Shown: positions 768-47,298 of the stretch, piece after piece | How the letters are laid out: each line of letters begins with the position of its first letter | Position numbering within the stretch: position 1 is the first letter of the stretch | From: Eubacteriales bacterium | GTDB taxonomy: Bacteria; Bacillota; Clostridia; Oscillospirales; JAAYXM01 | NCBI GenBank assembly: GCA_045649105.1 | Contig: JAZRPG010000027.1 | Coordinates: 16,798 to 80,797, forward strand | Direction: 5' to 3' | DNA: 64,000 nt | Translations under genes and position numbers: made by a program | The notes under the pieces: generated by a model | Database searches by the model: none | Told to the model about the DNA's origin: nothing | What the model saw: the letters and a program-made list of their open reading frames with translations, nothing else

Positions 768-1172
768 GTGTCTGTTGTGCTTCGGGATATGACATTAGAT
801 GAGTTTTTTAAACGGCAGCCTGTGCTTATTCCGCTGTTTTTGACATTAAAGGATGCTGCACGGGAAAAGTTTCCGGACCTTCGTATCAGGATAGAGGAGC
901 ATCAATTAACATTTTTTGATATTCGCCCATATTGTAAAGTTACTCTGCCGTGTCAAAGTGATATCAAAACTGAGGATAGGAACAGCCTTATTTTATCCTT
1001 TGAGGTTCCGATGGAGTGTATTTCAAACCGGTTTGCGAAAATAACAATGCTTGCAAAGGATAAATTCCTTCACTGTGTTGTGATAAACAGCAGTGAGCAA
1101 GTGGATGAAGAGCTTATATCCTGGCTTGAGATGTCTCGTGAGTGGAATAATCTGTATGCATGCAGAAAGTGA
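768..1172 (+). CDS. hypothetical protein, family not recognised; start may be GTG 777
   Basis: 134-aa ORF with GAGGTG just upstream, bracketed by two terminators. No recognisable motifs. Confidence 0.45.
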   Translation: MSVVLRDMTLDEFFKRQPVLIPLFLTLKDAAREKFPDLRIRIEEHQLTFFDIRPYCKVTLPCQSDIKTEDRNSLILSFEVPMECISNRFAKITMLAKDKFLHCVVINSSEQVDEELISWLEMSREWNNLYACRK

Positions 1173-1180
1173 GTCTGTGT

Positions 1181-1229
1181 AAAAAAATTAAGAGGAACAG
1201 ACGAATTTATTGCCTGTTCCTCTTTTTTG
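1181..1229. terminator. bidirectional intrinsic terminator
   Basis: AAGAGGAACAG / CTGTTCCTCTT 11-bp stem with an A-run on one side and a T-run on the other, between convergent genes. Confidence 0.7.
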
Positions 1230-1234
1230 TACGC

Positions 1235-1456
1235 TTAGACAGAATCGGTTTGATTGAGCGACGTTACGGCATCATCTCTGAAGAAAAGTGATATACACCA
1301 AATACCTGCGAGGGCAACGAGTGCATACACAATTCTGCTGATGACTGCACCCTGTCCGCCGAATATCGCAGCGACGATGTCAAATTGAAAGATACCTATT
1401 GAGCCCCAGTTCACTGCTCCGATTATAACCAATAGAAGGGCTATTCTGTCAAACAT
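1235..1456 (-). CDS. DUF378-like small membrane protein
   Basis: 73 aa with two TM helices. The GAVNWGSIGIFQFDIV motif is characteristic of DUF378. Confidence 0.7.
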   Translation of the reverse strand: MFDRIALLLVIIGAVNWGSIGIFQFDIVAAIFGGQGAVISRIVYALVALAGIWCISLFFRDDAVTSLNQTDSV

Positions 1457-1602
1457 TTTATCAACTCCCTATAAAATAGATTTGACGTACAGCATAAGTA
1501 TTCCACATAATCAGTTGTTAATGCATATAAATACCGAAAAAAAGATGCTGCCAATTAGTGTTAAAAATTTTTTATAGTAAATGAAAAATTTGGTGTTTCT
1601 TA

Positions 1603-1631
1603 TTGACATGCAGGTTTTTATAGGGTATAAT
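1603..1631 (+). promoter_or_regulatory. sigma-A type promoter of the pyr operon
   Basis: TTGACA (1603-1608), 17-nt spacer, TATAAT (1626-1631). It lies inside the 5' extension of the track ORF, so the ATG at 1581 cannot be the real start. Confidence 0.7.
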
Positions 1632-1664
1632 AAATTAATTTTGGACGAAGGAGGCGTGAATACT

Positions 1665-2942
1665 TTGAGTTTTTTGATTTCCGGTGCAAATGTTTACCGT
1701 AACGGTGAGTTCAAAAAACTTGATATTTTGGTTTCTGACGGTCGTTTTATTGATGTTTTTCCTTCTGTTTCTTGTGCTGAATGTGATAGTGTTTTTAAAT
1801 TTAATAATTGCTTTGTCTTTCCGGGTCTCGTTGATGTTCACGTTCATCTCAGAGAACCGGGATTTTTATATAAAGAGAGCATAGAAAGCGGAACTATGGC
1901 AGCTGCGCGTGGCGGATATACCGATGTGTGCGCCATGCCGAACTTAAACCCCGTTCCTGATTGTGCGGCGAACTTGCGCGTGCAGACTGAGCTTATAGAA
2001 AAAAATGCCTTGGTGCATGTATATCCGTATGCATCGATTACGGTTGGACAGCGCGGAGAGAAGCTGTCAGCTCTTGAAGAAATGCAAGGTGATGTTTGCG
2101 GCTTTACCGATGACGGAAAGGGCGTTCAAAGTGAAGAAATGATGCGTCGTGCGATGTTGGTCGCAAAAAAATGCGAAAAAATAGTCGCTGCACATTGTGA
2201 GGACGAAGCGCTTCTTGGAGGGTCATGTATACATGATGGAGAATTTGCGAGAAAACTCGGACACAAAGGTATATCATCGGAAAGCGAATGGAAGCAGATT
2301 GAACGCGATTTGAGACTTGTCCGTGAGACGGGCTGTAAATATCATGTGTGCCATATTTCAACGGCTGAGGGTGTTGAGCTTATCAGGAGAGCAAAGAAAG
2401 AGGGGCTTTCGGTAACCTGCGAAACTGCGCCGCATTATCTTGTGCTTGATGATTCTATGCTTAGTGATGACGGAAGGTTTAAAATGAACCCTCCCATAAG
2501 AACAAAAAGTGACAGAGAGGCGCTTGTCAGAGGAATATGCGATGGGACGATAGATATGATAGCAACTGACCATGCGCCACATTCCGAAGAGGAAAAAAGC
2601 CGTGGAATTCTTGGAAGTACTATGGGTGTTACCGGGCTTGAGTCCGCATTCCCCGTGCTTTATACAGAGCTTGTTAAAACAGGGGTCATAACGCTTGAAA
2701 AGCTTGTTGCCTTGATGAGTGACAATCCACGCAAAATATTCGGTATAGGTAATGAAATAGAAAAAAATTGTAATGCGAACTTCTGCGTGTTTGACCTTGA
2801 TAAGAATTATAATATAGATGCAGGAACTTTTTTGTCAAAAGGACACAGTACGCCGTTTAACGGCAGAAATGTGTTTTCAAAATGTATTATGACAGTAGTA
2901 GACGGGAGGATAATATGGCAAGAGAATTTGACAGAAAGATAG
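1665..2942 (+). CDS. pyrC: dihydroorotase
   Basis: HVHLREPG and DHAPH metal-binding motifs. Start placed at TTG 1665, 10 nt after GGAGG (1650-1654); GTG 1656 is only 1 nt from the SD. Confidence 0.9.
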   Translation: MSFLISGANVYRNGEFKKLDILVSDGRFIDVFPSVSCAECDSVFKFNNCFVFPGLVDVHVHLREPGFLYKESIESGTMAAARGGYTDVCAMPNLNPVPDCAANLRVQTELIEKNALVHVYPYASITVGQRGEKLSALEEMQGDVCGFTDDGKGVQSEEMMRRAMLVAKKCEKIVAAHCEDEALLGGSCIHDGEFARKLGHKGISSESEWKQIERDLRLVRETGCKYHVCHISTAEGVELIRRAKKEGLSVTCETAPHYLVLDDSMLSDDGRFKMNPPIRTKSDREALVRGICDGTIDMIATDHAPHSEEEKSRGILGSTMGVTGLESAFPVLYTELVKTGVITLEKLVALMSDNPRKIFGIGNEIEKNCNANFCVFDLDKNYNIDAGTFLSKGHSTPFNGRNVFSKCIMTVVDGRIIWQENLTER

Positions 2943-4006
2943 TATTCGAGGACGGAAGCGAATACTTGGGTTACGGCTTTGGTGCAAGGCGTGATGCGAT
3001 ATGTGAGGCTGTTTTTAATACCTCAATGGTCGGGTATCAGGAGATTCTATCTGATCCGACATATGCTTACCGTATGGTAACAATGACATATCCGGTTATA
3101 GGGAATTACGGCATAGCGGATGATGATTTTGAGACAAAGACACCGTCAATCGGGGGCCTTATAGTCCGCGAATATAACGATATACCGAGTAATTTCAGGT
3201 ATATTGAAACACTGTCGGAGATTCTTGAAGAAAGCGACATACCTGCAATCTCCGGAGTTGATACTAGAATGATAACGCGCAGCATTCGCGATCTTGGAAG
3301 CCGTAAGGTGATGATTACGGATATATCCACAACAAAAGAAGCAGCTCTGGAAGCTATGAGTAAATATGAAATTCCGCGAGATGCCGTTGATAAGGTGAGT
3401 TGCAAGAAAAAATGGTATTCAAGAACTTCGAATCCGCGCTTCAACGTTGTTGCAGTGGACTGCGGAGTTAAGCTCAATATCATAAGAAGCCTTAATGCGC
3501 GCGGATGCAACGTTACTGTTGTTCCGTATAATACAAGTGCGGAAGAGATAAGTGCACTTAAGCCTGATGGAGTATTAATTTCGAACGGACCTGGAAACCC
3601 GGAGGATGTAAAGTCTGTAATTGAGCTTGTAAAGAAGCTTTTAGGTCGCTTCCCGATTTTCGGAATAAGCCTCGGCCATCAGATTATTTCACTTGCGTAC
3701 GGTGCTCGTACATATAAACTTAAGTTCGGACGGGCCGGTAGCCATCCCATAAGGAAAACGGATACGGGCAAAATAGAAATGGCAAGCCAGAATTACTACT
3801 ATGCAGTAGATAAAGAGTCTTTAAAAGGAACAAAGCTTAAGATAACGCATGAGAATGTTCTTGACGGTACGGTTGAGGGCTTATCTTGTGAGAGTGACAG
3901 GGTATTTTGTGTACAGTATAACCCTGAAAGCGCACCCGGTCCACAGGACAGCACATATTTGTTTGATGACTTTATAAAGCTTATGGAGGGCTGCAAAAAT
4001 GCCTAA
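2915..4006 (+). CDS. carA: carbamoyl-phosphate synthase small subunit with a degenerate glutaminase active site
   Basis: Homologous to CarA over its full length. Start is ATG 2915 after GGGAGGA. Active-site motifs read GISLGHQ, SQNYYY and [11 protein letters not shown] (see finding). Confidence 0.9.
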
Positions 4007-7000
4007 GAGAAAAGATATAAAAAAGGTACTTGTAATCGGTTCAGGTCCGATAGTTATAGGACAGGCTGCGGAGTTTGACTACGCAGGAACGCAGGCATGC
4101 CTTGCTCTTAAGGAGGAAGGTTATGAAGTAATACTCATGAATTCAAATCCGGCAACGATAATGACAGATACAACGATTGCCGATAAAGTGTATATGGAGC
4201 CGCTCACACTTGAGTATGCGGCGAAGATTCTTCGTTACGAGCGTCCTGATGCAATTGTTCCGGGTATAGGTGGCCAGACGGGGCTTAACTTGGCTATGCA
4301 GCTTGCCAAAAAAGGAGTGCTTGATGAATGCCGTGTAGAGATGCTCGGAACGAGCTGTGAAAGTATTGAGCGTGCAGAGGACAGAGAGCTTTTTAAAAAG
4401 CTGTGTGAAGAAATAGGAGAGCCTGTTCTGCCGTCTATAATAACGCACAGCATCGAAGAGGCAATTGCTGCAGCGGAGGAAATCGGATACCCTGTTGTGC
4501 TTCGCCCGGCATTTACACTCGGCGGCACAGGTGGCGGTTTTGCGGATAATGAGGAAGAGCTTTGCGACATAATGAAAAATGCGCTTAAGCTTTCTCCGAC
4601 AAAACAGGTGCTTGTTGAAAAGAGCATAAAGGGCTATAAAGAGATAGAGTACGAAGTAATACGCGACTCAAATGATACGGCGATTACCGTATGTAATATG
4701 GAAAATATAGATCCGGTAGGTATACATACGGGCGACTCAATTGTAGTTGCACCTAGTCAGACGCTGACAAACAAGGAGGTCCAGCTCCTTCGCGACAGCG
4801 CACTGAAAATTATAAGAGCGCTTAAGGTGGAAGGTGGCTGCAATGTTCAGTTTGCGCTTGACCCGCAGTCGTTTAAGTACTATCTTATAGAGGTAAATCC
4901 GCGTGTGTCGCGTTCATCTGCTCTCGCCTCCAAGGCGAGCGGATACCCGATAGCGAGGGTGTCTGCAAAGATAGCTGTAGGCATGCATTTGGATGAAATC
5001 ATGATAGCAGATACACCTGCAAGCGCCGAACCAACGCTTGACTATGTCGTTACAAAGGTGCCGCGTTTTCCGTTTGATAAATTCACCGCTGCTTCCAATA
5101 AGCTGAGCACGCAGATGAAGGCAACGGGAGAGGTTATGAGCATTGGAAGAACGATTGAAGAGAGTCTTCTTAAAGCAATAAGGTCTCTTGAGACAGGTGT
5201 CTGCCATTTGTATATGTCAAAATTTGACAAGATTTCAACACATGAACTTATGGACTATATAAAAGACGGAACAGACGACAGAATCTTTGCAATTTCAGAG
5301 CTTATTAGACGCAAGGTTGATATCGGAATGATCTGGAGCGCAACTCAGATCGATATGCTGTTCCTGGACAAAATCAAGAATATAGTAGACTTTGAATCTG
5401 AAATCAGGGACAACGCGGGCGACCTCAAAGTTTTGTACGAGGCGAAGCGCATGGGCTTCTGCGACGAGTTTATAGCAAAGCTTTGGAATATGTCTGAGCG
5501 TGAAATATACGAGATAAGAAAGAAAAACAATATGTTCCCTGTATATAAAATGATAGACAGATGCGCAGGGGCGCTTGAAGGATATGTTCCGTATTTTTAC
5601 TCTACATATGAAACTGAAAATGAGTCTGTAATAGGGAAAAGGAAAAAGATAATCGTTCTTGGTTCAGGTCCGATACGCATCGGTCAGGGTGTCGAATTCG
5701 ATTATTCGACTGTCCATGCTGTATCTACAATCAGAGAATACGGTTATGAAGCAATTATAATAAACAACAACCCTGAAACAGTTTCGACGGACTATACAAC
5801 AAGTGATAAGTTGTACTTTGAACCGCTGACTGTAGAGGATGTAATGAATATTATTGAGCTTGAAAAGCCTGAGGGTGTTATAGCATTCCTCGGTGGACAG
5901 ACGGCAATAAACCTTGCTGCACCTCTTAAGGAGCTTGGTGTAAAGCTCATTGGAACGGACGTAGACGCTATAGAAAAGGCTGAAAATCGCGATTCGTTTG
6001 AAAAGATTATGCATAAGCTCGGGATTCCCGAGCCGCCCGGACGCGCTGTTACAAATATTGATGACGGAGTACGCGCGGCAACAGAGATTGGTTATCCTGT
6101 TCTTGTGCGTCCGAGCTATGTTCTCGGCGGACGGGCAATGCAGATTGTCGCAAGCGAGGAAGCACTCAAGAAATATTTAAAGACGGCAGTTGCAATTAAT
6201 GAGGATCAGCCCGTGCTTGTTGATAAATATATAGTCGGTAAAGAGCTTGAAGTTGACGCTGTATGTGACGGCAAGGATGTATTCATTCCGGGCATTATGG
6301 AGCATGTCGAGAAGACAGGAATACACTCGGGAGACAGCATAAGCGTTTATCCGACATTCAGCATAAGCGAGAAGGTTAAAGAGACGATAATTGACTATAC
6401 AATAAAGCTTGGTATGGGCATAGGTATCGTAGGCCTTTATAATATTCAGTTTATCGTGGATAAAAACGAGGATGTTTATGTAATAGAGGTAAATCCGCGC
6501 TCATCAAGAACGGTGCCGTTCCTTTCAAAAGCAACGGGTTATTCAATTGCGGATATTGCTACACTTGCAGTTCTCGGAAAGTCGCTTCGTGAACAGGGAT
6601 TTTCGGAGGTTTATCCGAAGGAAAAGGAAAAGTGGTATGTAAAAGCGCCTGCATTTTCCTTCTCAAAGCTCCGTGGACTTGATGCATATCTCTCGCCGGA
6701 GATGAAGTCTACCGGTGAGTCCATAGGCTATGACAAAAAGCTCACAAGAGCTCTTTATAAGGCCCTTCAGTCATCGGGGATGAATGTCGCAAACTACGGC
6801 ACAATACTCGTTACAATAGCTGATAAGGATAAAGAAGAGGCCCTGCCTCTGATACGGAGATTCTACAATCTCGGTTTCAATATAGAGGCAACAATAGGTA
6901 CGGCACAATATCTCCGTGAGCATGGAATACGTACGCGTGCAAGAGCAAAGATAAGCGAGGGCAATGAGGAAATACTCGATTCATTAAGACGCGGATATGT

Positions 7001-7181
7001 AAGCTATGTTATAAATACTCGTGACATAGACGCATCTGTAAATGCGGAAAGTGACGGATATCAAATCCGACGCTGTGCCGTTGAAAATAATATAACGATG
7101 TTTACGGCACTTGATACAGTGCGCGTGCTCCTTGATGTGCTCGAGGAAATAACAATAACCGTTTCTACGATTGATTCGTGA
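3999..7181 (+). CDS. carB: carbamoyl-phosphate synthase large subunit
   Basis: 1060 aa with duplicated ATP-grasp halves ([17 protein letters not shown] and [17 protein letters not shown]). Overlaps the carA stop by 8 nt. Confidence 0.97.
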
Positions 7182-7189
7182 GGTGACAG

Positions 7190-7924
7190 ATGTATAAAAA
7201 GGGCATATTCGAAATAGGCGAAAATGTAAACATTGCTAAAAATACTTACAGAATGGTGCTTTTAGGAAATACTAATGATATAACGGCACCCGGACAGTTT
7301 ATAAATATTATGATTGACGGTTTTTATCTTCGCAGACCGATTTCCGTATGCGATTATGACGATAAGTCTGTCACAATAATATACAAGACAATAGGTAAGG
7401 GAACTGAGGCTATGAGCAGGCTTTCATCCGGTGTAAAGCTTGACATACTTACAGGTCTTGGTAACGGCTTTCATGCGGCAAAGAGCGGGGACAGACCGCT
7501 TCTTGTAGGCGGCGGACTCGGTGTTGCTCCGATGTATGCTATGGCGAAAGCGTTAATGCGTGAGGGAAAGCGTGTTTCGGTCATACTGGGATTCAACACA
7601 AAAGACGAGGTTGTGCTCGAGCATGAGCTATTGAAGCTTGGTGCTGAAGTTTTAGTAGTCACAGCTGATGGGAGTTACGGTAAAAAAGGCTTTCCGACAG
7701 ATGCAATGGGTGATTTTCAATATACATATTTCTATGCATGCGGACCGCTGCCGATGCTTCGTGCAGTGAGTGATGCATCAATTACGAGCGGTGAGCTGAG
7801 CTTTGAGGAGCGCATGGGCTGCGGCTTCGGTGCATGCATGGGCTGCAGTTGCAAGACAAAGTACGGAAACAAGCGCATTTGCAGAGACGGTCCTGTCCTT
7901 GAAAAGGAGGAAGTTATATGGTAG
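7190..7924 (+). CDS. pyrK: dihydroorotate dehydrogenase B electron-transfer (FAD / 2Fe-2S) subunit
   Basis: C-terminal cluster CGFGACMGCSC...C and position directly upstream of pyrD. Confidence 0.9.
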   Translation: MYKKGIFEIGENVNIAKNTYRMVLLGNTNDITAPGQFINIMIDGFYLRRPISVCDYDDKSVTIIYKTIGKGTEAMSRLSSGVKLDILTGLGNGFHAAKSGDRPLLVGGGLGVAPMYAMAKALMREGKRVSVILGFNTKDEVVLEHELLKLGAEVLVVTADGSYGKKGFPTDAMGDFQYTYFYACGPLPMLRAVSDASITSGELSFEERMGCGFGACMGCSCKTKYGNKRICRDGPVLEKEEVIW

Positions 7925-8832
7925 ATATGACAGTTGAGTTAGCAGGACTTAAGCTTGATAATCCGATAATACCTGCGAGCGGGACGTTTGGATACGGGTA
8001 TGAATTCAACGAGTTTTATGACATAAACATGCTTGGTTCCTTTTCGTTTAAAGGCACAACTCGTGAGCCGAGATTCGGCAACAATACGCCGAGAATAGCT
8101 GAGTGTGCATCGGGACTTCTTAATGCGGTCGGGTTGCAGAATCCGGGTATCGATGCTGTGATTAACAGTGAGCTTCCGCGCATGCGCGAGGTGTTTAAGA
8201 AGCCTGTAATTGCAAATATAAGCGGTTTTTCAAAAGATGAGTATGTATATTGCTGCAAGCGCATAGACAAAGAGGAACAGGTCGGAGCGATTGAGGTTAA
8301 TATAAGCTGTCCTAATGTGCATAATGGCGGTATGAGCTTCGGAACATCACCTGAATCAGCATTTGAAATTACAAAAGCTGTAAAGGAAGTTACAAGCAAG
8401 CCTGTATTTATGAAGCTTTCTCCGAATGTAACCGATATTGCAGCGATTGCATCTGCCTGTGAAAGTGCCGGGGCGGACGGAATCAGCCTTATAAATACAC
8501 TTCTCGGCATGCGGATAGATATAGCAAAAAGAAAGCCTCTGCTTAATAATAAGACGGGCGGTATGTCAGGGCCTGCAGTTTTCCCGATTGCAGTCAGGAT
8601 GGTATATCAGGTTTACGAGGCTGTAAATATCCCGATAATAGGCATGGGAGGAGTTTCAAGTGCGGAGGATGTGCTTGAGATGATGCTTGCCGGTGCAAGC
8701 GCAGTTCAGGTCGGAGCGGCAAATCTTGTAAATCCGTATATCTGTAAAGAGATTATCGATGCTCTACCCGATGTTATGAAAAAATATAATATAACAAGCT
8801 TAAAGGATTTAGTTGGGGGTGCACATAAATGA
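7918..8832 (+). CDS. pyrD: dihydroorotate dehydrogenase B catalytic subunit
   Basis: NISCPN active-site Cys motif of class 1 DHODH. Translationally coupled to pyrK. Confidence 0.95.
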   Translation: MVDMTVELAGLKLDNPIIPASGTFGYGYEFNEFYDINMLGSFSFKGTTREPRFGNNTPRIAECASGLLNAVGLQNPGIDAVINSELPRMREVFKKPVIANISGFSKDEYVYCCKRIDKEEQVGAIEVNISCPNVHNGGMSFGTSPESAFEITKAVKEVTSKPVFMKLSPNVTDIAAIASACESAGADGISLINTLLGMRIDIAKRKPLLNNKTGGMSGPAVFPIAVRMVYQVYEAVNIPIIGMGGVSSAEDVLEMMLAGASAVQVGAANLVNPYICKEIIDALPDVMKKYNITSLKDLVGGAHK

Positions 8833-9533
8833 ATAAGGATGTCATTATAGCATGTGATTTTAAAAGTGGCGCAGAGACACTTGAATTTCTCGACAAGTTC
8901 AAAGAGGAAAGGCTGTTTCTTAAAATCGGTATGGAGTTGTTTTATGCAGAGGGTCCTGACATCGTTCGTCAGATAAAGGCACGCGGGCATAAGATATTCC
9001 TCGATTTGAAGCTGCATGATATTCCGAATACAGTGAAACGCGCAATGGCATCGCTCTCAAAGCTTGATGTTGATATGTGCAATGTTCATGCTGCCGGCAC
9101 TATTGAGATGATGCGTGCAGCAAAGGAAGGACTTACGCGTGAGGACGGTTCGCGACCGCTTCTTATAGCTGTAACACAGCTTACATCAACGAGTGAGGAG
9201 CGCATGAGAGAGGAACTTTTAATTGACCGGCCGTTAGATGAGGTTGTCATGAGCTATGCAGAGAACGCAAAGACAGCGGGACTTGACGGAATTGTATGTT
9301 CTCCGCTTGAAGCAAAAAAGGTTAAGGACAGATGCGGAGCGGGATTTTTAACCGTTACTCCCGGCGTCAGGTTTGAAAGTGATGACAAGGGTGACCAGGT
9401 CCGTGTTACTACACCTGCAGATGCGAGAAAAATTGGTTCGGATTTTATCGTAGTCGGACGTCCGATTACGCGTGCGGAGAATCAGGTGGATGCATACAGA
9501 AGATGTGTTGCTGATTTTTTAGGAGGTAAATAA
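8829..9533 (+). CDS. pyrF: orotidine 5'-phosphate decarboxylase
   Basis: FLDLKLHDIPNT motif. ATGA overlap with pyrD. Confidence 0.95.
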   Translation: MNKDVIIACDFKSGAETLEFLDKFKEERLFLKIGMELFYAEGPDIVRQIKARGHKIFLDLKLHDIPNTVKRAMASLSKLDVDMCNVHAAGTIEMMRAAKEGLTREDGSRPLLIAVTQLTSTSEERMREELLIDRPLDEVVMSYAENAKTAGLDGIVCSPLEAKKVKDRCGAGFLTVTPGVRFESDDKGDQVRVTTPADARKIGSDFIVVGRPITRAENQVDAYRRCVADFLGGK

Positions 9534-9534
9534 G

Positions 9535-10167
9535 ATGAATAAGAAAATAGCAAAGGCGCTTTTGTCGATAGGAGCAGTGTTTTTAAGACCGGAACAACCG
9601 TTTACATGGGCAAGTGGTATTAAAAGCCCGGTATACTGTGACAACAGACTCACGCTGACGGCTCCTGAAGTAAGAAATGAGATAGAGAATGCAATAGCAG
9701 AAACGATTAGAAAAGAGTATCCCGAGTGCGAGGTTATAATGGGTACAAGTACGGCAGGTATTGCCCATGCCGCAATAGCGGGACATATCCTCGGACTTCC
9801 GGTGGGATATGTGCGTTCAGGGGCTAAGGACCATGGACGCGCAAACAGGATAGAAGGCAAGCTTGAGAAAGGACAGAAGGTAGTCGTTGTTGAGGATTTA
9901 ATATCCACAGGCGGCAGTGTTATAGATGTTGTTGACGCGCTTCGCGAGGCCGGTGCTACAGTTCTGGGCGTTGTCAGCATATTCACATATAATATGAAAA
10001 AGGGGGTAAAGAGACTTGAGGCAGCAGGTGTAAAGAATATTAGCCTTACAGATTTTGACACAATATGTGAAGTTGCAGCAGAGTGTGATTATATCAAGAG
10101 TGAGGACATTTCGAGGCTTATGGCATTCAGAAATAATCCGGACGATGAAAGCTGGATAGAAAAATAA
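9535..10167 (+). CDS. pyrE: orotate phosphoribosyltransferase
   Basis: PRPP-binding loop [13 protein letters not shown]. Confidence 0.93.
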
Positions 10168-10181
10168 GCGGAGGAATAAAA

Positions 10182-11096
10182 ATGAGGCATTTAATCAATA
10201 TTACGGATCTCTCGGTCGAAGAAATTGAAAAGCTTCTTAAAACAGCGGAGGATATAATAGAAAACGGAGCAGCATACAGCGAAAAATGCAAAGGGAAAAA
10301 GCTCGGTTCTCTGTTCTTTGAGCCAAGTACGAGGACGAGGCTCAGTTTTGAGGCTGCTATGCTTGAGCTCGGGGGCAGCGTTATCGGATTTTCCGATGCG
10401 GGCAATAGCAGTACTGCGAAAGGTGAGAGTGTATCTGATACTGTTCAGACGGTAAGTTGCTATGCAGACATAATCGCCATGCGCCACCCGAAGGAAGGTG
10501 CGCCGATGGCGGCTACGCTGAGGTCAGGTGTTCCGATAATAAATGCAGGTGACGGCGGTCATAATCACCCGACACAAACGCTTGCAGACCTTCTGACAAT
10601 CCGTCGTGAACGTGGAAAGTTTTCCGGATTGACTATCGGACTTTGCGGTGATTTAAAGTTTGGCAGAACTGTACACTCATTGATAATTGCGATGTCACGA
10701 TATGAAAATGTGCGGTTTGTCCTTATCTCACCGGAGGAGCTCCGCGTGCCTAATTATATAAAACAGGATGTTCTTATAAAGAATGGGATGCAGTGGCGAG
10801 AGACGACGAGTATGGAAGATGCAATGCCCGAACTCGATGTTTTGTATATGACGCGTGTACAGCGCGAGCGCTTCTTCAATGAGGCGGATTATGTAAGACT
10901 TAAGGATAGCTATATATTGACGCCGGATAAGCTTGAGTGTGCAAAGAAAGATCTCTGCATAATGCATCCGCTTCCGCGTGTTAATGAGATATCGACGAGC
11001 GTTGATGATGACCCGCGTGCATGTTATTTCAAGCAGGTGCTTTATGGAAAATATATGCGTATGGCGCTTATTATGATGCTTTTGGAGGTCAGATAG
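10182..11096 (+). CDS. pyrB: aspartate carbamoyltransferase catalytic chain
   Basis: STRTR, HPTQ and HPLPRV motifs. Confidence 0.95.
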
Positions 11097-11098
11097 AA

Positions 11099-11521
11099 AT
11101 GAATGTAGACAGCATAAAAAACGGTATAGTTCTTGACCATATAAAAGCAGGTACAGCTATGGATATATACCACTATCTTGATCTTGATACTCGGGACTGC
11201 ACGATTGCGATTATAAAAAATGTTTCAAGTAAGAATTGTGGTAAAAAAGATATAATCAAAATCGATGAGGAGATAGATATAAATCTTGAGCTTCTCGGAT
11301 ATATCGATAATGAGATTACGGTAAATATCATAAAAGATGGGCAGATTGTAAAGAAATTTCATCCGGAGCTTCCGGAAAAAGTAGAAAATTTCTTGACGTG
11401 TAAGAATCCGCGCTGTATAACATCAACTGAACGTGGCATCAAGCAGATTTTTAAGCTGACGGATAGGGATGCGCGTGTATATCGATGCGCTTATTGTGAG
11501 AGCCCGGCTAAAGGGGAATAA
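11099..11521 (+). CDS. pyrI: aspartate carbamoyltransferase regulatory chain
   Basis: Start is ATG 11099 after GGAGG. C-terminal zinc domain CxxxxC...CxxC (CKNPRC, CAYC). Confidence 0.9.
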   Translation: MNVDSIKNGIVLDHIKAGTAMDIYHYLDLDTRDCTIAIIKNVSSKNCGKKDIIKIDEEIDINLELLGYIDNEITVNIIKDGQIVKKFHPELPEKVENFLTCKNPRCITSTERGIKQIFKLTDRDARVYRCAYCESPAKGE

Positions 11522-11524
11522 GAT

Positions 11525-12034
11525 ATGAGGATTCTTGCTCAGATTGTGGGCATAATTGCGCTTGCGTGTGCTGTTATATCATTTCAGCAGAATGCCCACA
11601 GGCGGATATTGGTGTTTCAACTGATTTCCGGAGTAATATTCGTTATACATTTTCTTATGCTTAATGCATATACCGGAGCGATACTTAATTTAGTCGCTGT
11701 AGTGCGAAGTGTTGTATTCGTAAACAAAGGTAAAAGCTGGGCGGATAATAAAATCTGGCTCGTTATATTCTGTGTATTATCTGTAGCTGTAGGTTTTTTC
11801 ACTTGGAATGGTGTTGCAACACTTTTGCCGATTTGCGGAATGATTTGTACGACGGTGGCGTTCTGGGTTAAATCACCCAAACATGTCCGCCTGATAGCGT
11901 TTCCGAGCTCTCCGCTCTGGCTTGTGTATAATGTTTTGAACAATTCATTTGCAGGGGTAGTAACTGAAGTTATAAACATGTGTTCGATAATAATTGCAAT
12001 GCTGAGATTTGATTACAAAAAAGCAGCGAAATAG
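11525..12034 (+). CDS. YgjV-family inner membrane protein
   Basis: 169 aa with 5-6 TM helices. N-terminal pattern resembles the YgjV family. Confidence 0.55.
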   Translation: MRILAQIVGIIALACAVISFQQNAHRRILVFQLISGVIFVIHFLMLNAYTGAILNLVAVVRSVVFVNKGKSWADNKIWLVIFCVLSVAVGFFTWNGVATLLPICGMICTTVAFWVKSPKHVRLIAFPSSPLWLVYNVLNNSFAGVVTEVINMCSIIIAMLRFDYKKAAK

Positions 12035-12072
12035 AAAAAAGGACTTCATTGTTTTACAATGAAGTCCTTTTT
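12035..12072. terminator. bidirectional intrinsic terminator
   Basis: AAAAAGGACTTCATTG / CAATGAAGTCCTTTTT stem with a 5-nt loop, between convergent genes. Confidence 0.8.
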
Positions 12073-12084
12073 AAAAACTAAAAA

Positions 12085-13263
12085 TCAGACAGAGCGCTTT
12101 AACTCATCAGCCTTATCAAGGCGCTCCCAGGGAAGGTCAAGCTCGGGCCGTCCGAAATGGCCGTATGATGCCGTTTGCAAATATATCGGGCGGCGAAGAT
12201 CAAACTGCTCAATTATTTTTGCGGGGCGCATATCAAAGTGCTCAGTGACTATCCTTGAAAGAGTTTCGTCAGAAATAATTCCTGTGCCGAATGTATCAAC
12301 AAATACAGAAACGGGATTTGCCACTCCGATAGCATACGCAAGCTCAATTTCGCAACGCTCGGCAAGGCCTGCAGCGACAATGTTTTTTGCAATGTATCTC
12401 GCCATATAAGCAGCGGACCTGTCGACCTTTGTTGGGTCCTTACCTGAGAAGCAGCCGCCGCCGTGACGTGCAAAACCGCCATAGGTATCTACGATGATTT
12501 TGCGTCCGGTAAGACCGGAATCTCCTCGGGGACCGCCGACAACGAATCTTCCGGTCGGATTTATAAGGAATTTCGTTTCCGAATCTATGTAGCGCTCCGG
12601 TATGACAGGAAGAATGACATGCTTTTTGACAGCATCACGAAGTGCAGAAAGTGAAATTGTGTCATAATGCTGTGTGGAAACGACAATCGTATCACAGCGC
12701 TTTACTTTGTTGTTTTCATATTCAAAGGTTACCTGTGCCTTGCCGTCAGGGCAGAGAAAGTCAAGTTCACCGGATTTTCTGACACTTGCAAGTCTCTTCG
12801 TAAGGTTGTGCGCAAAGGTAATTGGCGCCGGCATAAGCTCCTTTGTTTCATTACACGCATAGCCGAACATCATACCCTGGTCTCCTGCGCCGATTTTGTC
12901 AGCAAAATCGTGGGGCTTGTCCTTGAACTCGGAAGAGTTGTCAACGCCGAGAGCGATATCAGGTGACTGCTCATCAATAGATGTTATGACGGAGCAAGTC
13001 TGGGAATCAAATCCCATGGCAGGATTGTTATATCCGATATCGAATATTGTTTTGCGAACGGTAGCAGGGATATCTACATAACAATCAGTTGTGATTTCAC
13101 CCATTACAAGAGCCATGCCTGTTGTTACTATGCTCTCGCACGCTACTCTTGCGTTCGGGTCATGCTCAATGATTGCATCAAGAATAGAATCGGAAATCTG
13201 GTCACATACCTTATCGGGATGTCCCTCGGTTACCGATTCGGAAGTAAATTTAAATAAAGACAT
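12085..13263 (-). CDS. metK: S-adenosylmethionine synthetase
   Basis: [21 protein letters not shown]-terminus and GGGAFSGKD-like GGGCFSGKD motif. Real start is M22 of the track ORF, with a GGAGA SD upstream. Confidence 0.97.
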
Positions 13264-13590: not shown

Positions 13591-14817
13591 ATGAACGTGC
13601 TTGTTTTGGCAGGAGGGTTTCCGCAGATAGCGCTTATAAAGGAATTGAAAAACAGGGGCTACAGAGTAATACTTGCAGATTATAATAAAGAACCGGTTGC
13701 AAAGAAGTATGCAGATGTTTTTTATCAGATTTCCACTCTTGATATTGATGCAGTAGAAGGTGTTGCGAAAAAAGAAAAAGTCAAGTTTTTAGTTACTGCC
13801 TGCACGGATCAGGCTTTGCACACTGTTGCAAAAGTGTCTGAAAACCTGGGTCTTCCATGCTATATAGATTATAAAACTGCCTTAAATGTAACCAATAAGG
13901 CATATATGAAAAAAGTTTTTAATGAATACGATATTTCTACCGCAAAGCACATAATTCTCGGTGAACTGGATTTGGACATGATTAAAGATATGAAATATCC
14001 GCTTATAGTTAAACCTGTGGATTGTAACAGTTCAAAAGGGGTTAAAAAGGTTGAAAACGAGAAAGAGCTCAAAGATGCTTTTTCTGATGCTGTCAGATTC
14101 AGTCGTACAGATACTGCTGTAATAGAAGAATTTGTGTCAGGAACAGAGGTTAGTGTTGATGTATATATAGAAGATGGAAAAGCGCATATACTTTCCACAT
14201 CCAGACTGGATAAAATAAAAGATAAGGATAAGTTTGTAATATACAGAGGATGTTTTCCTGCAGCTGAAGCTGAATCGGTTATGGATAAAATTCAGGATAC
14301 CGCACAGAAAATAGCAGATGCATTTAAACTTAAAAATTCCCCTATGTTAATTCAACTTATAACCGATGGAAAGGAAGTTTATGTTCTTGAATTCAGTGCG
14401 AGGACAGGTGGAGGGATTAAGTTTCTGCTTATAAATAAAGCCTGCGGATTTGATGTTATAAAGGCTGTTGTAGACCTTACCGAAGGAAAAAAACCTCATG
14501 TAGAAAAGAGTTTACCTGAAGATAAGATTATGATAAACACTTTTGTATACTGTAAAAAAGGAATATTTGACCATCTCGAAGGCTTTGATGAAATGATTAA
14601 AGCGGGTGCCATGAAAGAATACTATATATTTAAATGGAAGGGCGCTGAATTTGATGATGTAAAAAGCAGTGGAGATAGAGTTGCCGGATATCTTGTGGCC
14701 GGAAACTCAATGGATGAGATAAAAGAAAAATACAGGAAGGTAGCTGAAAATATAAAGGTAATTGATGTGGCAGGGAATGATATTTTGCGTCATGACCTTA
14801 TAGAAAATATTGATTAA
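13591..14817 (+). CDS. ATP-grasp domain ligase, substrate unknown
   Basis: 408 aa with a pre-ATP-grasp Rossmann-like N-terminus (VLVLAGGFPQIALIKELKNRGYRVILAD), a central YPLIVKPVDCNSSKGV motif and LEFSARTGGG. Strong GGAGG SD. Confidence 0.7.
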   Translation: MNVLVLAGGFPQIALIKELKNRGYRVILADYNKEPVAKKYADVFYQISTLDIDAVEGVAKKEKVKFLVTACTDQALHTVAKVSENLGLPCYIDYKTALNVTNKAYMKKVFNEYDISTAKHIILGELDLDMIKDMKYPLIVKPVDCNSSKGVKKVENEKELKDAFSDAVRFSRTDTAVIEEFVSGTEVSVDVYIEDGKAHILSTSRLDKIKDKDKFVIYRGCFPAAEAESVMDKIQDTAQKIADAFKLKNSPMLIQLITDGKEVYVLEFSARTGGGIKFLLINKACGFDVIKAVVDLTEGKKPHVEKSLPEDKIMINTFVYCKKGIFDHLEGFDEMIKAGAMKEYYIFKWKGAEFDDVKSSGDRVAGYLVAGNSMDEIKEKYRKVAENIKVIDVAGNDILRHDLIENID

Positions 14818-14820
14818 AAG

Positions 14821-14849
14821 AAAAAGGGACTGTAAAGTCCCCTTTTTTT
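14821..14849. terminator. bidirectional intrinsic terminator
   Basis: GGGACT / AGTCCC stem flanked by A- and T-runs, between convergent genes. Confidence 0.7.
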
Positions 14850-14856
14850 GTAAGTA

Positions 14857-15753
14857 TTAGCTTTTTAAAATATCAATTGCATATTTCGCATATTCCGATA
14901 AATACTGACCGCGACGTGTTATGATTGCAGGTTGGCGTACATTTAAATCACACTTTGGAATAAATAGCCTTGTTGTATTGTTGTTTTCTACGCTGTTTAT
15001 AAACTGCAACGGTAATAAGGTTGCTCCAATTCCGGCGCGAGTCATTGCCCATGCAGTAGCGAGTCCGATAACCTCTGTTGCTATACGGGGGCGTATATCT
15101 GATTCACGGCAAATTTTTTCAAAGAGGATACGCATTTCTTGTGTTTTGCTTGCGACAACAAATGGAAGATTTTCGCAATGCTTAAAATCTATTTCGGATA
15201 AATTATTTCCGGTTTTACAATTTAACAGTGAAAGCATGTTTTCAGGAACTGCAAGAACAAGTTTATCCTGTTCAATAGGGTCTGCAGACAGAATTGATTC
15301 ATCTACAGGCAGATTTGCTATTGCAAAATCGAATTTTCCGTCTGCAGCCATTTTTCTTAAATTATCGCTTGAATCTTCATGCAGAACGATTTTGACATCA
15401 GGATATTTATTCCTGATTTTTTTTAAAAGCTCCGGCATTAAATATAATGCACGAAATGGAGAAATTCCTATTGTGAGGTTGCCGAATTTACCGGAAGCAA
15501 AATTCTCCATAGAACTGTACAGCTGTTTTTCTTTATATAATAACTCTTTTGCTTCTTTAAAAAAATATTCTCCGGCGGCAGTCAGCTTTATAGGTGTCTG
15601 ATTTCTGTCAAACAGTATAGCGCCTATATTTTTTTCAAGATTTGAAATCTGTTTACTTAATGCAGGCTGAGAAATTCCAAACTTTTCAGCTACATTCGAA
15701 AAATTAAGAGACTCAGAAAGCTCAATGGCATATTCTAATTGTTTGTTATTCAC
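14857..15753 (-). CDS. LysR-family transcriptional regulator
   Basis: N-terminal HTH (LEYAIELSESLNFSNVAEKFGISQPALSKQISNLE) plus a LysR substrate-binding domain of typical length. Confidence 0.9.
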   Translation of the reverse strand: MNNKQLEYAIELSESLNFSNVAEKFGISQPALSKQISNLEKNIGAILFDRNQTPIKLTAAGEYFFKEAKELLYKEKQLYSSMENFASGKFGNLTIGISPFRALYLMPELLKKIRNKYPDVKIVLHEDSSDNLRKMAADGKFDFAIANLPVDESILSADPIEQDKLVLAVPENMLSLLNCKTGNNLSEIDFKHCENLPFVVASKTQEMRILFEKICRESDIRPRIATEVIGLATAWAMTRAGIGATLLPLQFINSVENNNTTRLFIPKCDLNVRQPAIITRRGQYLSEYAKYAIDILKS

Positions 15754-15831
15754 TTTTTCACATCCTCTACTATGGTTATATAATACTCCTTGAAAGGGAT
15801 TTTTTCAAGAATTTTTTATCAATAAAAAGTA

Positions 15832-15859
15832 TTGACAAATTTTATAATGAGTGTATAAT
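15832..15859 (+). promoter_or_regulatory. putative promoter of the DctM-like permease gene
   Basis: TTGACA, 16 nt, TATAAT. Divergent from the LysR gene. Confidence 0.55.
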
Positions 15860-15861
15860 AA

Positions 15862-15896
15862 AACCAAAAGGATATCGAGATTATAACCTTTTGGTT
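15862..15896 (+). promoter_or_regulatory. 10-bp inverted repeat at or near the transcription start; candidate LysR operator
   Basis: AACCAAAAGG, 15 nt, CCTTTTGGTT, immediately downstream of the -10 element. Confidence 0.4.
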
Positions 15897-15934
15897 AAAT
15901 GAATGATAGGGATTTTTGTGAAAGGAGAATAACG

Positions 15935-20148: not shown

Positions 20149-21528
20149 ATGAAACTATGGGGCGGAAGATTTAATAAAGAGGTCGACAGCAGGGTAAATG
20201 ACTTCAATTCATCAATAGCTTTTGACGGGCGTATGTACTATGAGGATATAGAAGGAAGCATTGCCCATGCGACGATGCTTGGCCGTCAGGGGATAATACC
20301 TGCCGAAGATGCCGAGAAAATTGCAGAAGAGCTTAGAAGAATACGTGACGATATAGAAAACGGAAAGCTTGAGCTCACTGATGATAATGAGGATATTCAT
20401 ATGAATGTCGAGCGCTTTCTTACCGAAAGACTCGGCGAGACGGGCAAGAGACTTCATACAGCGAGAAGCAGAAATGACCAGGTCGCTCTCGATATCCGCA
20501 TGAATATAAAGAAAGAAATTTGTGAGGTAAAAGAGCTTGTATTGTCGCTCATGAGTGCCATTGCAAAGAAAGCCTCTGAAAACACGAAAAATGTTATGCC
20601 GGGATATACACACCTGCAAAGAGCGCAACCGATTACCGCGGCACATCACTTTATGGCATATGCCGAGATGTTCAAGCGCGATGTAACGCGCCTTGAGGAT
20701 TGCTATGAGCGCATGAATGTCTCGCCGCTCGGCTCCGGAGCTCTTGCAGGTACTACATACAATATTGACAGAGAGTTTGTTGCAAAAGCCCTTGGTTTTT
20801 CAGGCGTTACAGATAATTCGCTTGACGGTGTTTCGGACAGGGATTTTCTTATAGAGCTTTCTTCTGCGCTGTCTATTATTATGATGCACCTTTCCCGCTT
20901 TTCCGAGGAAATAATAATGTGGTGCTCTTGGGAGTTCCGTTTTATTGAGCTTGATGACGCATATTCGACAGGTTCCTCAATAATGCCACAGAAGAAAAAT
21001 CCTGATGTTGCAGAGCTTGTACGAGGCAAAACGGGCAGAGTGTACGGTTCGCTGATTACTTTGCTGACAATGATGAAGGGTATTCCTCTTGCATATAACA
21101 AAGATATGCAGGAGGATAAGGAAGCTATTTTTGACGCTATTGATACTGTGAAGCAGTGCCTTGATGTATTCCGCCCGATGTTTGAAACAATGACGGTGCT
21201 TGCAGACAATATGCGACTTGCCGCATCACGGGGCTTCATAAATGCAACTGACTGTGCAGATTATCTTGTAAAAAAAGGAATGGCATTCAGGGATGCATAC
21301 ACAGTTGTCGGAAGACTCGTAAGGGTATGCTCAGATAGCGGAAAAACGCTTGAAACAATGCCATTGGATGAGCTTAAGAAAATATCAGAAGCGTTTGATG
21401 AGGATGTATATGACGCCCTCGACATGAACACCTGCGTTGACGGCCGTTCCGTAAAAGGCGGACCTGCAACCGTTGAGGTAGAGCGACAGATAAAAAAACT
21501 TCTTGAATTTATAGCAGAGCATAAATAA
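20149..21528 (+). CDS. argH: argininosuccinate lyase
   Basis: [11 protein letters not shown] signature loop and fumarase/ASL family length. Confidence 0.95.
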
Positions 21529-29031: not shown

Positions 29032-29787
29032 ATGAACTCAAGACAACGTATTATAAAAGAGTTTATTGAGGAAAGAAGAGAGGTTTCTCTTGCATCTCTT
29101 CGTAAACTTGTTCCCGATGTTTCGGAAATGACAATCAGGCGTGACCTTGAGGCACTTGAGCTTGCAGGCTCTATCGTGCGTGTCCATGGTGGGGCAAGGT
29201 CGGTAAAAGCCATCAACATGCTGGTTGAAGATGTGTTCTCAAAGCGTCTCGGGAAAAATGTTGAGAAAAAACATAAGATCTGCAAAAAAGCCATGCAGTA
29301 CATAGAAAACAATAAGTCTATCTACATTGATGCGGGCAGTACGACTATGATGCTTGCAGAGAATATGCCTGATAAAAAGCTTTTAATATCAACATGCGGA
29401 CTTAATGTGGCTGCTGAGCTTTTGAAGCTTGAGAATTGCAGAGTAAATCTTCTCGGAGGAGAAGTGAATAAAGGCAGTATTTCAACTTCCGGGCCGAGTG
29501 CTCGTGCTGCAATTGAAAATTTAAATATTGATGTTGCTTTTATTGCATCAACTGCTTTTTCGGAAAAACAGGGTTTTTCCTGCGGTAATGTTCACGATTG
29601 TGAGCTTAAAAGGGAAGTGCTTCGCCGTGCGGCACTGCGTATCGTTCTCATGGACAGCAGTAAAATAGGAAGAACGATGCCGTATACATTTGCGCGGCCG
29701 AATGATATAGATATCCTCATCTGTGATGATGATGCGCCGGAAGGGCTTCGCGAATTTTTTGAGGACTGCGGAGCTCAGGTACTGTAA
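29032..29787 (+). CDS. DeoR-family transcriptional regulator
   Basis: N-terminal wHTH (RQRIIKEFIEERREVSLASLRKLVPDVSEMTIRRDLEALE) and a DeoR C-terminal sensor domain. Confidence 0.9.
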   Translation: MNSRQRIIKEFIEERREVSLASLRKLVPDVSEMTIRRDLEALELAGSIVRVHGGARSVKAINMLVEDVFSKRLGKNVEKKHKICKKAMQYIENNKSIYIDAGSTTMMLAENMPDKKLLISTCGLNVAAELLKLENCRVNLLGGEVNKGSISTSGPSARAAIENLNIDVAFIASTAFSEKQGFSCGNVHDCELKREVLRRAALRIVLMDSSKIGRTMPYTFARPNDIDILICDDDAPEGLREFFEDCGAQVL

Positions 29788-29807
29788 AATCAGAAAGGAG
29801 AAATAAC

Positions 29808-31061: not shown

Positions 31062-31080
31062 TGAAAGGGGAAAATGAATT

Positions 31081-32796: not shown

Positions 32797-32816
32797 TAGG
32801 AAAGGGGATTTAAAAT

Positions 32817-34178: not shown

Positions 34179-34197
34179 GAAAGAAGGAGTAAAAACA

Positions 34198-37646: not shown

Positions 37647-37660
37647 GGAGAAAAAGACAA

Positions 37661-46368: not shown

Positions 46369-46370
46369 AT

Positions 46371-46416
46371 AAAAGGCGATATATTTTGATTTTAAGTCAA
46401 ATATATCGCCTTTTTT
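46371..46416. terminator. bidirectional intrinsic terminator
   Basis: AAAAGGCGATATATTT..GA / TCAAATATATCGCCTTTT stem between convergent genes. Confidence 0.8.
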
Positions 46417-46436
46417 GTACTAAAAATAAATAAAAA

Positions 46437-47273: not shown

Positions 47274-47298
47274 ATTTTTTCTCCATTCTTTTGTGAAA

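Follow-up and report, generated by a model that had tools for sequence, protein, structure and literature searches.

A pyr-operon carbamoyl phosphate synthetase of anaerobic Clostridia with a decayed glutaminase subunit, a candidate bacterial counterpart of CPS I

Carbamoyl phosphate synthetase (CPS) is the textbook example of a tunnelled glutamine amidotransferase (GATase). Glutamine is the substrate of every type of CPS other than vertebrate CPS1 (De Cima et al. 2015, PMC4655335); the eubacterial CPSs known so far are all glutamine dependent, and ammonium-dependent CPSs have been found among prokaryotes only in Archaea (PMC8121099). In this study, we analyzed carA, the gene for the CPS small subunit, in a 64,000-nucleotide stretch of a Eubacteriales metagenome-assembled genome (MAG) (GCA_045649105.1, contig JAZRPG010000027.1, positions 16,798 to 80,797), hereafter called the window. 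The gene is part of a pyrimidine biosynthesis (pyr) operon, and its product, CarA, carries neither the nucleophile nor the general base of the glutaminase site. We put the probability at about 0.65 that the enzyme is an ammonia-dependent CPS in which CarA serves as a catalytically dead but structurally conserved partner, i.e., a bacterial analogue of CPS I.

Among the closest described systems is vertebrate CPS1 (EC 6.3.4.16). Like the window CarA, the CarA-homologous N-terminal moiety of CPS1 has an inactive glutaminase, and the dead domain has been retained; human CPS1 has Ser294 at the nucleophile position, which is the same Cys-to-Ser change (PMC4655335). CPS1 takes its ammonia from the medium, as is proposed here for the window enzyme. 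In contrast to the window enzyme, CPS1 is a single fused polypeptide of ~1500 residues that resides in animal mitochondria, needs N-acetylglutamate, and serves the urea cycle, and Gln318, at the site of E. coli Gly293, plugs its ancestral ammonia tunnel (PMC4655335). The window CarA keeps the Gly293 equivalent, has lost the triad His, and is encoded separately from the large subunit, CarB. It also stands outside the metazoan CPS I lineage and represents an independent bacterial loss, its nearest canonical kin being clostridial proteins at 73% identity.

The CPS I/III variants of frogs and Alcolapia are further natural cases in which changes in the GATase site moved the enzyme from glutamine to ammonia (PMC7657897, PMC4655335). 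However, in those enzymes the triad is kept and residues that bind glutamine are lost, whereas the window CarA loses the triad and keeps the equivalents of Leu270 and Gln273. The minimal CPS of Methanobrevibacter smithii and the carbamate-kinase-like CPS of Pyrococcus make carbamoyl phosphate from free ammonia (PMC8121099, PMC6022934), as proposed here, but these archaeal enzymes have no glutaminase domain or adopt another fold and are not CarA/CarB heterodimers with a vestigial subunit. The orphan CarB2 (BT3866) of Bacteroides thetaiotaomicron resembles the present case in that it belongs to a gut anaerobe and has been proposed as a bacterial ammonium-dependent CPS. Genetic evidence in Bacteroides points to a CPS that bypasses glutamine when ammonium is plentiful, with CarB2 proposed to be the ammonium-dependent enzyme, and purified bacterial CarB acts as a CPS that depends on ammonium (PMC8121099). 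CarB2 lacks a CarA partner and occurs alongside a canonical CarAB, whereas the window keeps an inactivated CarA in its pyr operon; here a full-length carA is translationally coupled to carB, which sets the locus apart from the orphan-CarB class. In the full-text literature, we found neither a description of a natural bacterial CarA without the nucleophile nor a follow-up to the CarB2 proposal.

The natural substitutions described below (Ser or Gly at position 269, Asn at 353) are the same as those engineered in the E. coli CarA mutants C269S, C269G, and H353N (1C30, 1C3O, 1A9X). In the studies of Rubino in 1986 and Miran in 1991, these mutants reportedly lost glutamine-dependent synthesis and kept the NH3-dependent reaction, and the 1987 paper by Rubino et al. 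(cited in PMC6245113) reportedly describes in vivo synthesis of carbamoyl phosphate from NH3 by the E. coli large subunit. The point mutants otherwise have a canonical pocket, whereas the natural proteins add changes at Ser47, His312, position 313, and the 290-294 loop. Unlike the laboratory mutants, natural dead CarAs have also long been kept by selection (synonymous divergence, dS, up to or above 1 within the clade described below).

The gene and the positions in it that bear on catalysis are the following.
2915..4006, + strand: carA, CPS small subunit, 363 residues (TIGR01368, PF00988 and PF00117, E. coli alignment, AF2 model)
3059..3061, + strand: codon ACA, Thr49 at the E. coli Ser47 position (the column is Ser in 98% of 117 canonical CarAs)
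3668..3670, + strand: nucleophile codon AGC, Ser252 at the E. coli Cys269 position (alignment, codon read-out)
3722..3748, + strand: loop KFG-RAGSHP (E. coli 287-296) with one codon deleted, Gly292 replaced by Ala, Asn294 replaced by Ser, and the Gly293 equivalent kept (alignments)
3785..3802, + strand: SQNYYY (E. coli 309-314, AQNHGF), with Tyr at both 312 and 313 (alignments)
3794..3796, + strand: codon TAC, Tyr294 at the E. coli His312 position (codon read-out)
3920..3922, + strand: triad codon AAC, Asn336 at the E. coli His353 position, with the Glu355 equivalent, Glu338, kept (alignment)

As the earlier note on this DNA had claimed, the protein aligns with CarA over its whole length. It matches TIGR01368 with 423.4 bits (cut-off 307.35) over model positions 2-360 of 361, which makes it a full-length family member, and both the N-terminal CPSase_sm_chain domain (PF00988, 151 bits) and the class-I GATase domain (PF00117, 150 bits) are recognized. 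The AF2 model (pLDDT 81.3, pTM 0.80) has E. coli CarA chains as its top Foldseek matches (TM 0.85) and superimposes on the N-terminal moiety of human CPS1 with a TM of 0.82.

The register was set by HMMER alignment of the window CarA to the E. coli CarA crystal sequences, which pairs Ser252 with Cys269, Asn336 with His353, Glu338 with Glu355, and Tyr294 with His312. The two best matches in the PDB are the engineered E. coli mutants C269S (1c30) and H353N (1a9x), which rank ahead of the wild type because the mutant residues equal those of the query. The alignment and this ranking therefore indicate that the registration is right, and a registration error, which was considered, is ruled out by the alignment together with the profile matches. 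The four active-site changes that the earlier note had reported were all recovered at the same codons and in the same register, namely Ser for Cys269 in the motif GISLGHQ, Asn for His353 with Glu355 kept, Tyr for His312 within SQNYYY, and the loop KFGRAGSHP, which is one residue shorter than KFGHHGGNHP of E. coli and leaves a one-residue gap in the alignment. In this register the triad columns hold Ser and Asn, with no Cys or His there.

A fifth change, Thr49 for Ser47, goes beyond those four. We take Ser47 to be a residue of the glutamine site or oxyanion region; Ser fills this column in 98% of 117 diverse canonical CarAs but in only 33% of 36 nucleophile-less ones. In the same 117 canonical representatives, the triad columns are Cys in 100% and His in 98%, and His312 is conserved in 100%. 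Thus, of the pocket residues Ser47, Gln273, Asn311, and His312, which read Thr49, Gln256, Asn293, and Tyr294 in the window CarA, two of four are lost, and SQNYYY places two bulky side chains in the region of the glutamine pocket. The motif GISLGHQ keeps the equivalents of Leu270 and Gln273, the glutamine-specificity residues. The equivalents of the tunnel-lining residues Ser35, Met36, Gly293, Pro358, and Gly359 are kept as well, and the 290-294 loop is remodelled; E. coli Gly293 is the tunnel-lining residue of the loop 287-296. With both nucleophile and general base gone, the glutaminase site is predicted to be dead. By homology the protein is a CarA, and the loss of the triad (Cys269-His353-Glu355) and of two of the four pocket residues would place it outside the glutamine-hydrolysing class (EC 6.3.5.5).

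The variant is not confined to one assembly. A contig from an independent sample (Logan SRR27608062) agrees with the window at all but 3 of 1943 nt, and the CarA protein it encodes is identical. Among the best 120 matches in a collection of 5.8 billion proteins, the Cys is missing only in the four closest; the other 116 of 116, at no more than 73% identity, are canonical and read GIC[LMF]GHQ and QYHPE, with SQNH and KFGHRGGNHP in all but one or two (KFGHRGGNHP is read in 114 of the 120 homologues). The four closest proteins are given below with their residues at the nucleophile position and at position 353.
P0001, 100% identity, the window sequence: Ser and Asn
P0002, 88% identity, GCA_052838845.1: Ser and Asn, with KFW-RAGNHA and SQNYGY
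P0003, 77% identity, GCA_054276195.1: Gly and Gln, with SQGH
P0004, 76% identity, GCA_052840445.1: Gly and a kept His, with SLAHSGGNHP and SQGH

In this clade, the nucleophile codons are AGC, AGC, GGA, and GGC, each state being one substitution apart from the next, versus TGT or TGC in all 78 canonical relatives among the fetched loci. The simplest history is that the Cys was lost once, in the ancestor shared by the four species, with the other pocket residues eroding differently on each branch. As P0003 and P0004 carry Gly, Ser is not a conserved alternative nucleophile. The earlier note had argued that four independent substitutions speak against a sequencing error. The independent sample and the orthologues bear this out, but the changes are not the peculiarity of one organism; they are better described as a lineage-wide, progressive decay in a four-species clade.

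The survey of related genomes that the earlier note had also proposed showed that the loss common to these four species recurs in other lineages of anaerobic Firmicutes. Residue states were taken by alignment-based column extraction throughout. A scan of GTDB yielded 80 species-representative loci (L003-L082), among which the window species and its three sisters do not figure. Seventy-eight of them are canonical, the best at no more than 73% identity to the window CarA, and two have Gly at the nucleophile position, L062 from a Eubacteriales MAG and L075 from a Clostridia MAG, the latter also with Asp for His353. In the CarB tree, L062 lies beside a canonical sequence and far from the window clade, and its loss is therefore independent. 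Among the best 150 representatives of 50%-identity clusters, ~30 of ~140 full-length CarAs are without the Cys (27 Gly, one Ser, one Ala, one Phe, and one doubtful Asp), a share that overstates the frequency, since dead copies evolve fast and are thus divided among many clusters; in the samples counted, the frequency per species is ~2% (2/80 GTDB loci; 2/119 homologues of the Desulfonispora protein introduced below). Fitch parsimony gives at least 12 state changes, on a neighbour-joining tree from protein distances, as were all our trees, so that long-branch effects could alter the count of independent losses. Judged from sequence, loss of the Cys is recurrent in anaerobic Firmicutes, and the window clade is one instance of it.

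Two of the nucleophile-less proteins have public names, MDR1702528.1 (P0184) from a Sporomusaceae MAG and WP_084053652.1 (P0241) from the cultured Desulfonispora thiosulfatigenes DSM 11270. The latter, whose gene lies in the order pyrB-pyrC-carA-carB-pyrK-pyrD-pyrF-pyrE, was also obtained as the same protein from an independent run. The order pyrC-carA-carB is kept at L002, L083, L084, L062, L075, L085, L087, and L088, of which L087 and L088 are further Gly-variant relatives (L087 also with pyrB upstream) and were read with their canonical neighbour L089 as a control. Indeed, every nucleophile-less carA whose context was readable stands in pyrC-carA-carB.

It is noteworthy that both P0184 and P0241 are publicly named 'glutamine-hydrolyzing carbamoyl-phosphate synthase small subunit', as is the canonical P0026. 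A systematic mis-annotation that is carried into EC 6.3.5.5 assignments is likely. A separate observation from the same survey concerns carA and carB of Bacteroidales (Alistipes, Paludibacteraceae, and Candidatus Aphodosoma; loci L058-L060, L067, L070, L073, and L077-L079), which are ~65% and 77% identical to the window pair and as close to it as many Clostridia. This suggests cross-phylum transfer of pyr-type carAB among gut anaerobes.

The pattern of decay tells where constraint has been lifted. We tallied, in 36 nucleophile-less CarAs, the residues that are 93-100% conserved in the 117 canonical representatives. Retention is 19% for His353, 33% for Ser47, 42% for Gln51, 47% for Asn240, 56% for Gln273, 61% for His312, 67% for Glu355, and 69% for Asn311, whereas Gly61, Gly64, Pro58, Thr115, Arg116, Gly200, Gly241, and Gly271 are retained in 97-100%. 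Erosion is therefore aimed at the glutamine pocket, and the scaffold is spared. Gly has replaced the Cys in 31 of the 36, followed by Ser or Ala. In our own reasoning, only small residues would be tolerated at the nucleophile elbow, in agreement with a fold on which selection still acts.

Substitution rates agree with this picture. Between the window and its relative L002, the ratio of nonsynonymous to synonymous divergence (dN/dS) of carA is 0.078 at a dS of 0.88, with 0.058 for the N-terminal domain and 0.107 for the GATase domain; the values for carB, pyrB, and pyrD are 0.033, 0.023, and 0.038, respectively. Across every pair in the clade, carA stays at 0.05-0.12, with dS reaching and exceeding 1 within the clade and saturated for the deeper pairs, and the open reading frame is intact and full length in four of four members. 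A dN/dS of ~0.08 therefore marks carA as a conserved pseudo-glutaminase and not a pseudogene. The term 'structural pseudo-glutaminase' used in the earlier note is a fair one, given a dead site under purifying selection; the window CarA combines loss of catalytic residues with purifying selection, as pseudoenzymes do.

At the same time, carA has been evolving fast relative to its partner. The ratio dN(carA)/dN(carB) is 2.7-3.0 in four variant-clade pairs, whereas 69 similarly diverged pairs of canonical sequences have a median of 1.19 and span 0.78-2.01; the corresponding ratio for the GATase domain is 3.6-4.0 versus a canonical maximum of 2.30. A CarB identity of 90-92% normally goes with a CarA identity of 84-92%, but the window and L083, and likewise L002 and L083, reach only 76-78%. 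Of the 148 CarA columns that are invariant (at least 97% identical in 62 canonical relatives), 12-18 are changed per variant, compared with a median of 0 and a maximum of 4 when canonical sequences are left out one at a time, whereas only 4-8 of the 544 invariant CarB columns are changed beside variant CarAs. The pattern is that of a CarA that has shed its catalytic constraints and kept its structural ones.

CarB itself is intact, as the earlier note had stated. The window protein keeps the tunnel-gate residues Cys232, Ala251, and Ala314 together with the 14-residue motif around them, and it also has the C-terminal MGS-like allosteric domain (PF02142). With a dN/dS of 0.033, the synthetase must be in use and therefore needs a nitrogen donor. 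A few CarB sites (residues 253, 338, 343, 524-528, and 908) are substituted beside nucleophile-less CarAs although they are invariant in all 62 canonical-partnered CarBs. Ser253, two residues past the gate Ala251, is Cys in L083, L084, L062, and L075; this change is no universal companion of dead CarA, as the window, L002, and L087 do not have it. In place of Phe343 (motif TPASFEP; Phe348 in E. coli), both the window and L002 have Ala and L087 has Val; in place of Phe526 (motif C-A-S-E-F), the window and L002 have Leu or Ile, and L087 has His. Substitutions at 253, 343, and 526 recur only beside dead CarAs, though not beside all of them. The change of Ser253 to Cys and the replacements of Phe343 and Phe526 may be adaptations that create or improve an entry for external ammonia.

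The genes around carA form the operon below, complete and tightly coupled, as the earlier note had described it; argH, farther downstream, is listed for context.
1603..1631, + strand: promoter-like site, TTGACA and TATAAT with a 17-nt spacer, the sole 12/12 consensus match in 1100-12400
1665..2942, + strand: pyrC, dihydroorotase, 425 residues, likely TTG start with GGAGG 10 nt upstream (TIGR00857, 404 bits)
3999..7181, + strand: carB, CPS large (synthetase) subunit, 1060 residues (NF003671, 1485 bits, full length)
7190-7924, + strand: pyrK, dihydroorotate dehydrogenase B subunit
7918-8832, + strand: pyrD, dihydroorotate dehydrogenase B subunit
8829-9533, + strand: pyrF
9535-10167, + strand: pyrE
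10182-11096, + strand: pyrB, aspartate carbamoyltransferase catalytic chain
11099-11521, + strand: pyrI, aspartate carbamoyltransferase regulatory chain
11525-12034, + strand: gene for a ygjV-like inner-membrane protein (PF10688)
12036-12072: 17-bp hairpin terminator, common to the convergent metK (terminator scan)
20149..21528, + strand: argH, argininosuccinate lyase (PF00206 and PF14698)

The promoter-like site lies 34 nt upstream of the pyrC start. For pyrC, the 425-residue reading agrees with the length of the L083 orthologue, and the ATG at 1581 is disfavoured as a start, as it precedes the promoter. For carA, the ATG at 2882 has no ribosome-binding site, whereas the ATG at 2915 is preceded by GGGAGG. 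The pyrC and carA genes overlap by 28 nt, and the carA stop and carB start by 8 nt. No PyrR site or other Rfam leader scored above threshold anywhere in the window, where only a 6S RNA elsewhere was recognized. The aspartate carbamoyltransferase encoded by pyrB and pyrI is a consumer of carbamoyl phosphate. The presence of argH 9 kb downstream of the operon (argH is also near the operon in L083) indicates that the arginine branch, a second consumer of carbamoyl phosphate, exists in the window organism.

We propose the following mechanism. The pseudo-glutaminase CarA is co-translated with an intact CarB and would assemble with it. Having neither nucleophile nor general base, CarA should release no ammonia from glutamine, so that the holoenzyme would make carbamoyl phosphate from bicarbonate, 2 ATP, and free cytoplasmic NH3, with no other glutaminase feeding the window CarB. 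NH3 as the physiological nitrogen donor is thus what we infer for this enzyme. CarA would be retained because CarB needs its partner, possibly to fold or remain stable, to give the entrance of the ammonia tunnel its shape, or to allow allosteric coupling, and ammonia could conceivably enter through the vestigial pocket or by another route. The fit to an ammonia-rich habitat, which the earlier note had suggested, is supported only indirectly, in that nearly all the close relatives recovered by the GTDB scan are Clostridia MAGs from gut, faeces, or rumen. We would also entertain, at slightly less than an even chance, the broader proposition that anaerobic Firmicutes (the window clade, the Sporomusaceae MAG, and cultured Desulfonispora among them) have repeatedly turned their pyr-operon CPS into an ammonia-dependent counterpart of CPS I, with a dead CarA as an obligatory scaffold.

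Several points weigh against ammonia as the physiological substrate of a conserved CarA-CarB pair. E. coli CPS uses NH4+ poorly, with a Km of ~0.1 M, and physiological use of ammonia should require better capture of NH3, for which the CarB substitutions described above are only suggestive. The ancestral tunnel is not visibly blocked, with the Gly293 equivalent kept, unlike in CPS1; therefore, a route from the old pocket, or an unrecognized alternative use of that pocket, is possible. Tajima relative-rate comparisons with canonical sisters gave 40-55 unique changes in CarA versus 21-29, with CarB balanced, but were significant for only some triplets (p 0.27 to 1e-4); random canonical triplets were discarded as a control for these comparisons, as they violate the outgroup assumption. 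Finally, the genome beyond the 64-kb window may hold another, canonical carA or carAB, or a carbamate kinase.

This last point leads to the explanation that has to be weighed first, namely that a second canonical CarA or a whole CarAB elsewhere supplies glutamine-derived nitrogen or carbamoyl phosphate and that the operon CarA is a structural or regulatory relic, in which case the organism overall would not depend on ammonia for carbamoyl phosphate. The window covers only 64 kb of a contig of ~181 kb in a multi-contig MAG, the presence of argH makes an arginine gene cluster elsewhere possible, and every nucleophile-less carA placed so far is the pyr-operon copy. In some Firmicutes, Bacillus among them, pyrimidine and arginine synthesis each have a CPS of their own. 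Bacteria with two CPSs have also been noted in the literature (PMC8121099). On the other hand, no second carA or carB was found by tblastn in the 64-kb window, nor in the ~10-kb flanks of L002, L083, L062, L085, and L087; the pyr-operon CarB is in use, to judge from its low dN/dS; and the co-translated CarA would fill the docking site that a second CarA would have to occupy. We consider this explanation unlikely. Even if it held, a second CPS would alter the physiological reading and not the glutaminase-dead status of the window CarA.

Alternatively, the dead GATase domain may have gained a ligand-binding or regulatory role, e.g., sensing glutamine or another metabolite and tuning CarB allosterically. 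Such a role would agree with the purifying selection on the domain, with the kept Leu270 and Gln273 equivalents, and with lineage-shared changes at otherwise invariant sites (L9F, I/V30A, V54T, and K117M), and in E. coli C269S, bound glutamine still has an effect on the large subunit. However, there is no positive sign of any ligand, the glutamine-contact residues Ser47, His312, and Asn311 are among those lost (the window CarA keeps the Asn311 equivalent, Asn293), and pocket decay takes a different course from lineage to lineage (Tyr/Tyr, Gly, Asn, and others), which disfavours a common new ligand. The chance of a new ligand therefore seems slight to us.

Slighter still is the chance that carA is an incipient pseudogene on its way to being lost, with CarB working alone like the orphan CarB2 of Bacteroides. 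The roughly threefold faster nonsynonymous evolution of carA relative to carB and the activity of isolated bacterial CarB with ammonia (PMC8121099) could be read in this way, but dN/dS remains far below 1 in every clade pair, neither the four clade members nor the ~36 nucleophile-less homologues, all of 343-389 residues, contain a frameshift or stop, the start/stop overlaps with pyrC and carB are preserved, and the scaffold residues are 97-100% conserved.

That Ser252 acts as an alternative nucleophile, hydrolysing glutamine or another amide by serine-hydrolase-type chemistry, is hardly credible. Ser is chemically feasible in this role, and Glu338 and the neighbouring His255 (E. coli His272) are kept, but the general base is Asn, the sister species with the same operon and 31 of the 36 nucleophile-less homologues have Gly, and the E. 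coli C269S mutant (PDB 1c30, 1c3o) reportedly has no glutamine-dependent activity. The possibility that the variant residues are an artefact of sequencing, assembly, or binning, which a MAG source always invites, is negligible in view of the identical protein from an independent sample, the same Ser and Asn in the 88%-identity orthologue from another MAG, and five coordinated changes together with an in-frame codon deletion.

If the ammonia-dependent CPS with a dead partner subunit is confirmed, the rule that all bacterial CPSs are glutamine dependent would be overturned, and the sequences described here would give, at the sequence level, the first evidence that bacteria have ammonia-dependent CPSs resembling CPS I. 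They would also provide natural replicates of an amidotransferase that drops its glutaminase and yet keeps the subunit. A systematic annotation error would be exposed, under which metabolic models of gut anaerobes would charge these CPSs to glutamine, and nucleotide and arginine synthesis in gut anaerobes would be tied directly to luminal ammonia, extending the idea of an ammonium switch in Bacteroides. As Desulfonispora thiosulfatigenes DSM 11270 is in culture, the idea is directly testable.

By Pfam, the remaining genes of the window are the ordinary chromosomal content of a spore-forming Clostridia bacterium, and a few of them deserve mention. At 13591-17293, a gene for an L-amino-acid-ligase-type ATP-grasp protein (PF13535 and LAL_C2) adjoins a divergent LysR regulator and a DctM-family transporter. 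The ATP-grasp gene itself (13591-14817), the only other ATP-grasp match to CarB in the window, was considered as a second carA/carB candidate and rejected as unrelated to CPS. At 45331-48183, two tyrosine recombinase genes, one at 45331-46368 (+ strand) and a XerD-like one at 47299-48183 (- strand), flank an open reading frame of 278 residues (46437-47273) with no Pfam match, and the arrangement could represent the border of a small mobile element or an inversion module. The cluster at 29032-38854 comprises a DeoR regulator, a Zn-dependent alcohol dehydrogenase, a complete 2-oxoacid dehydrogenase complex (an E2 with two lipoyl domains, an E3, and a fused E1 alpha-beta of 824 residues), a lipoate-protein ligase, and a mannitol-dehydrogenase-family enzyme; its content resembles that of a locus for using acetoin or polyols, which would be unusual for a strict anaerobe. 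The 6S (SsrS) RNA gene lies at 39609-39804 (- strand; RF00013, 86.8 bits, full-length model), directly upstream of a ThiF-family gene on the same strand.

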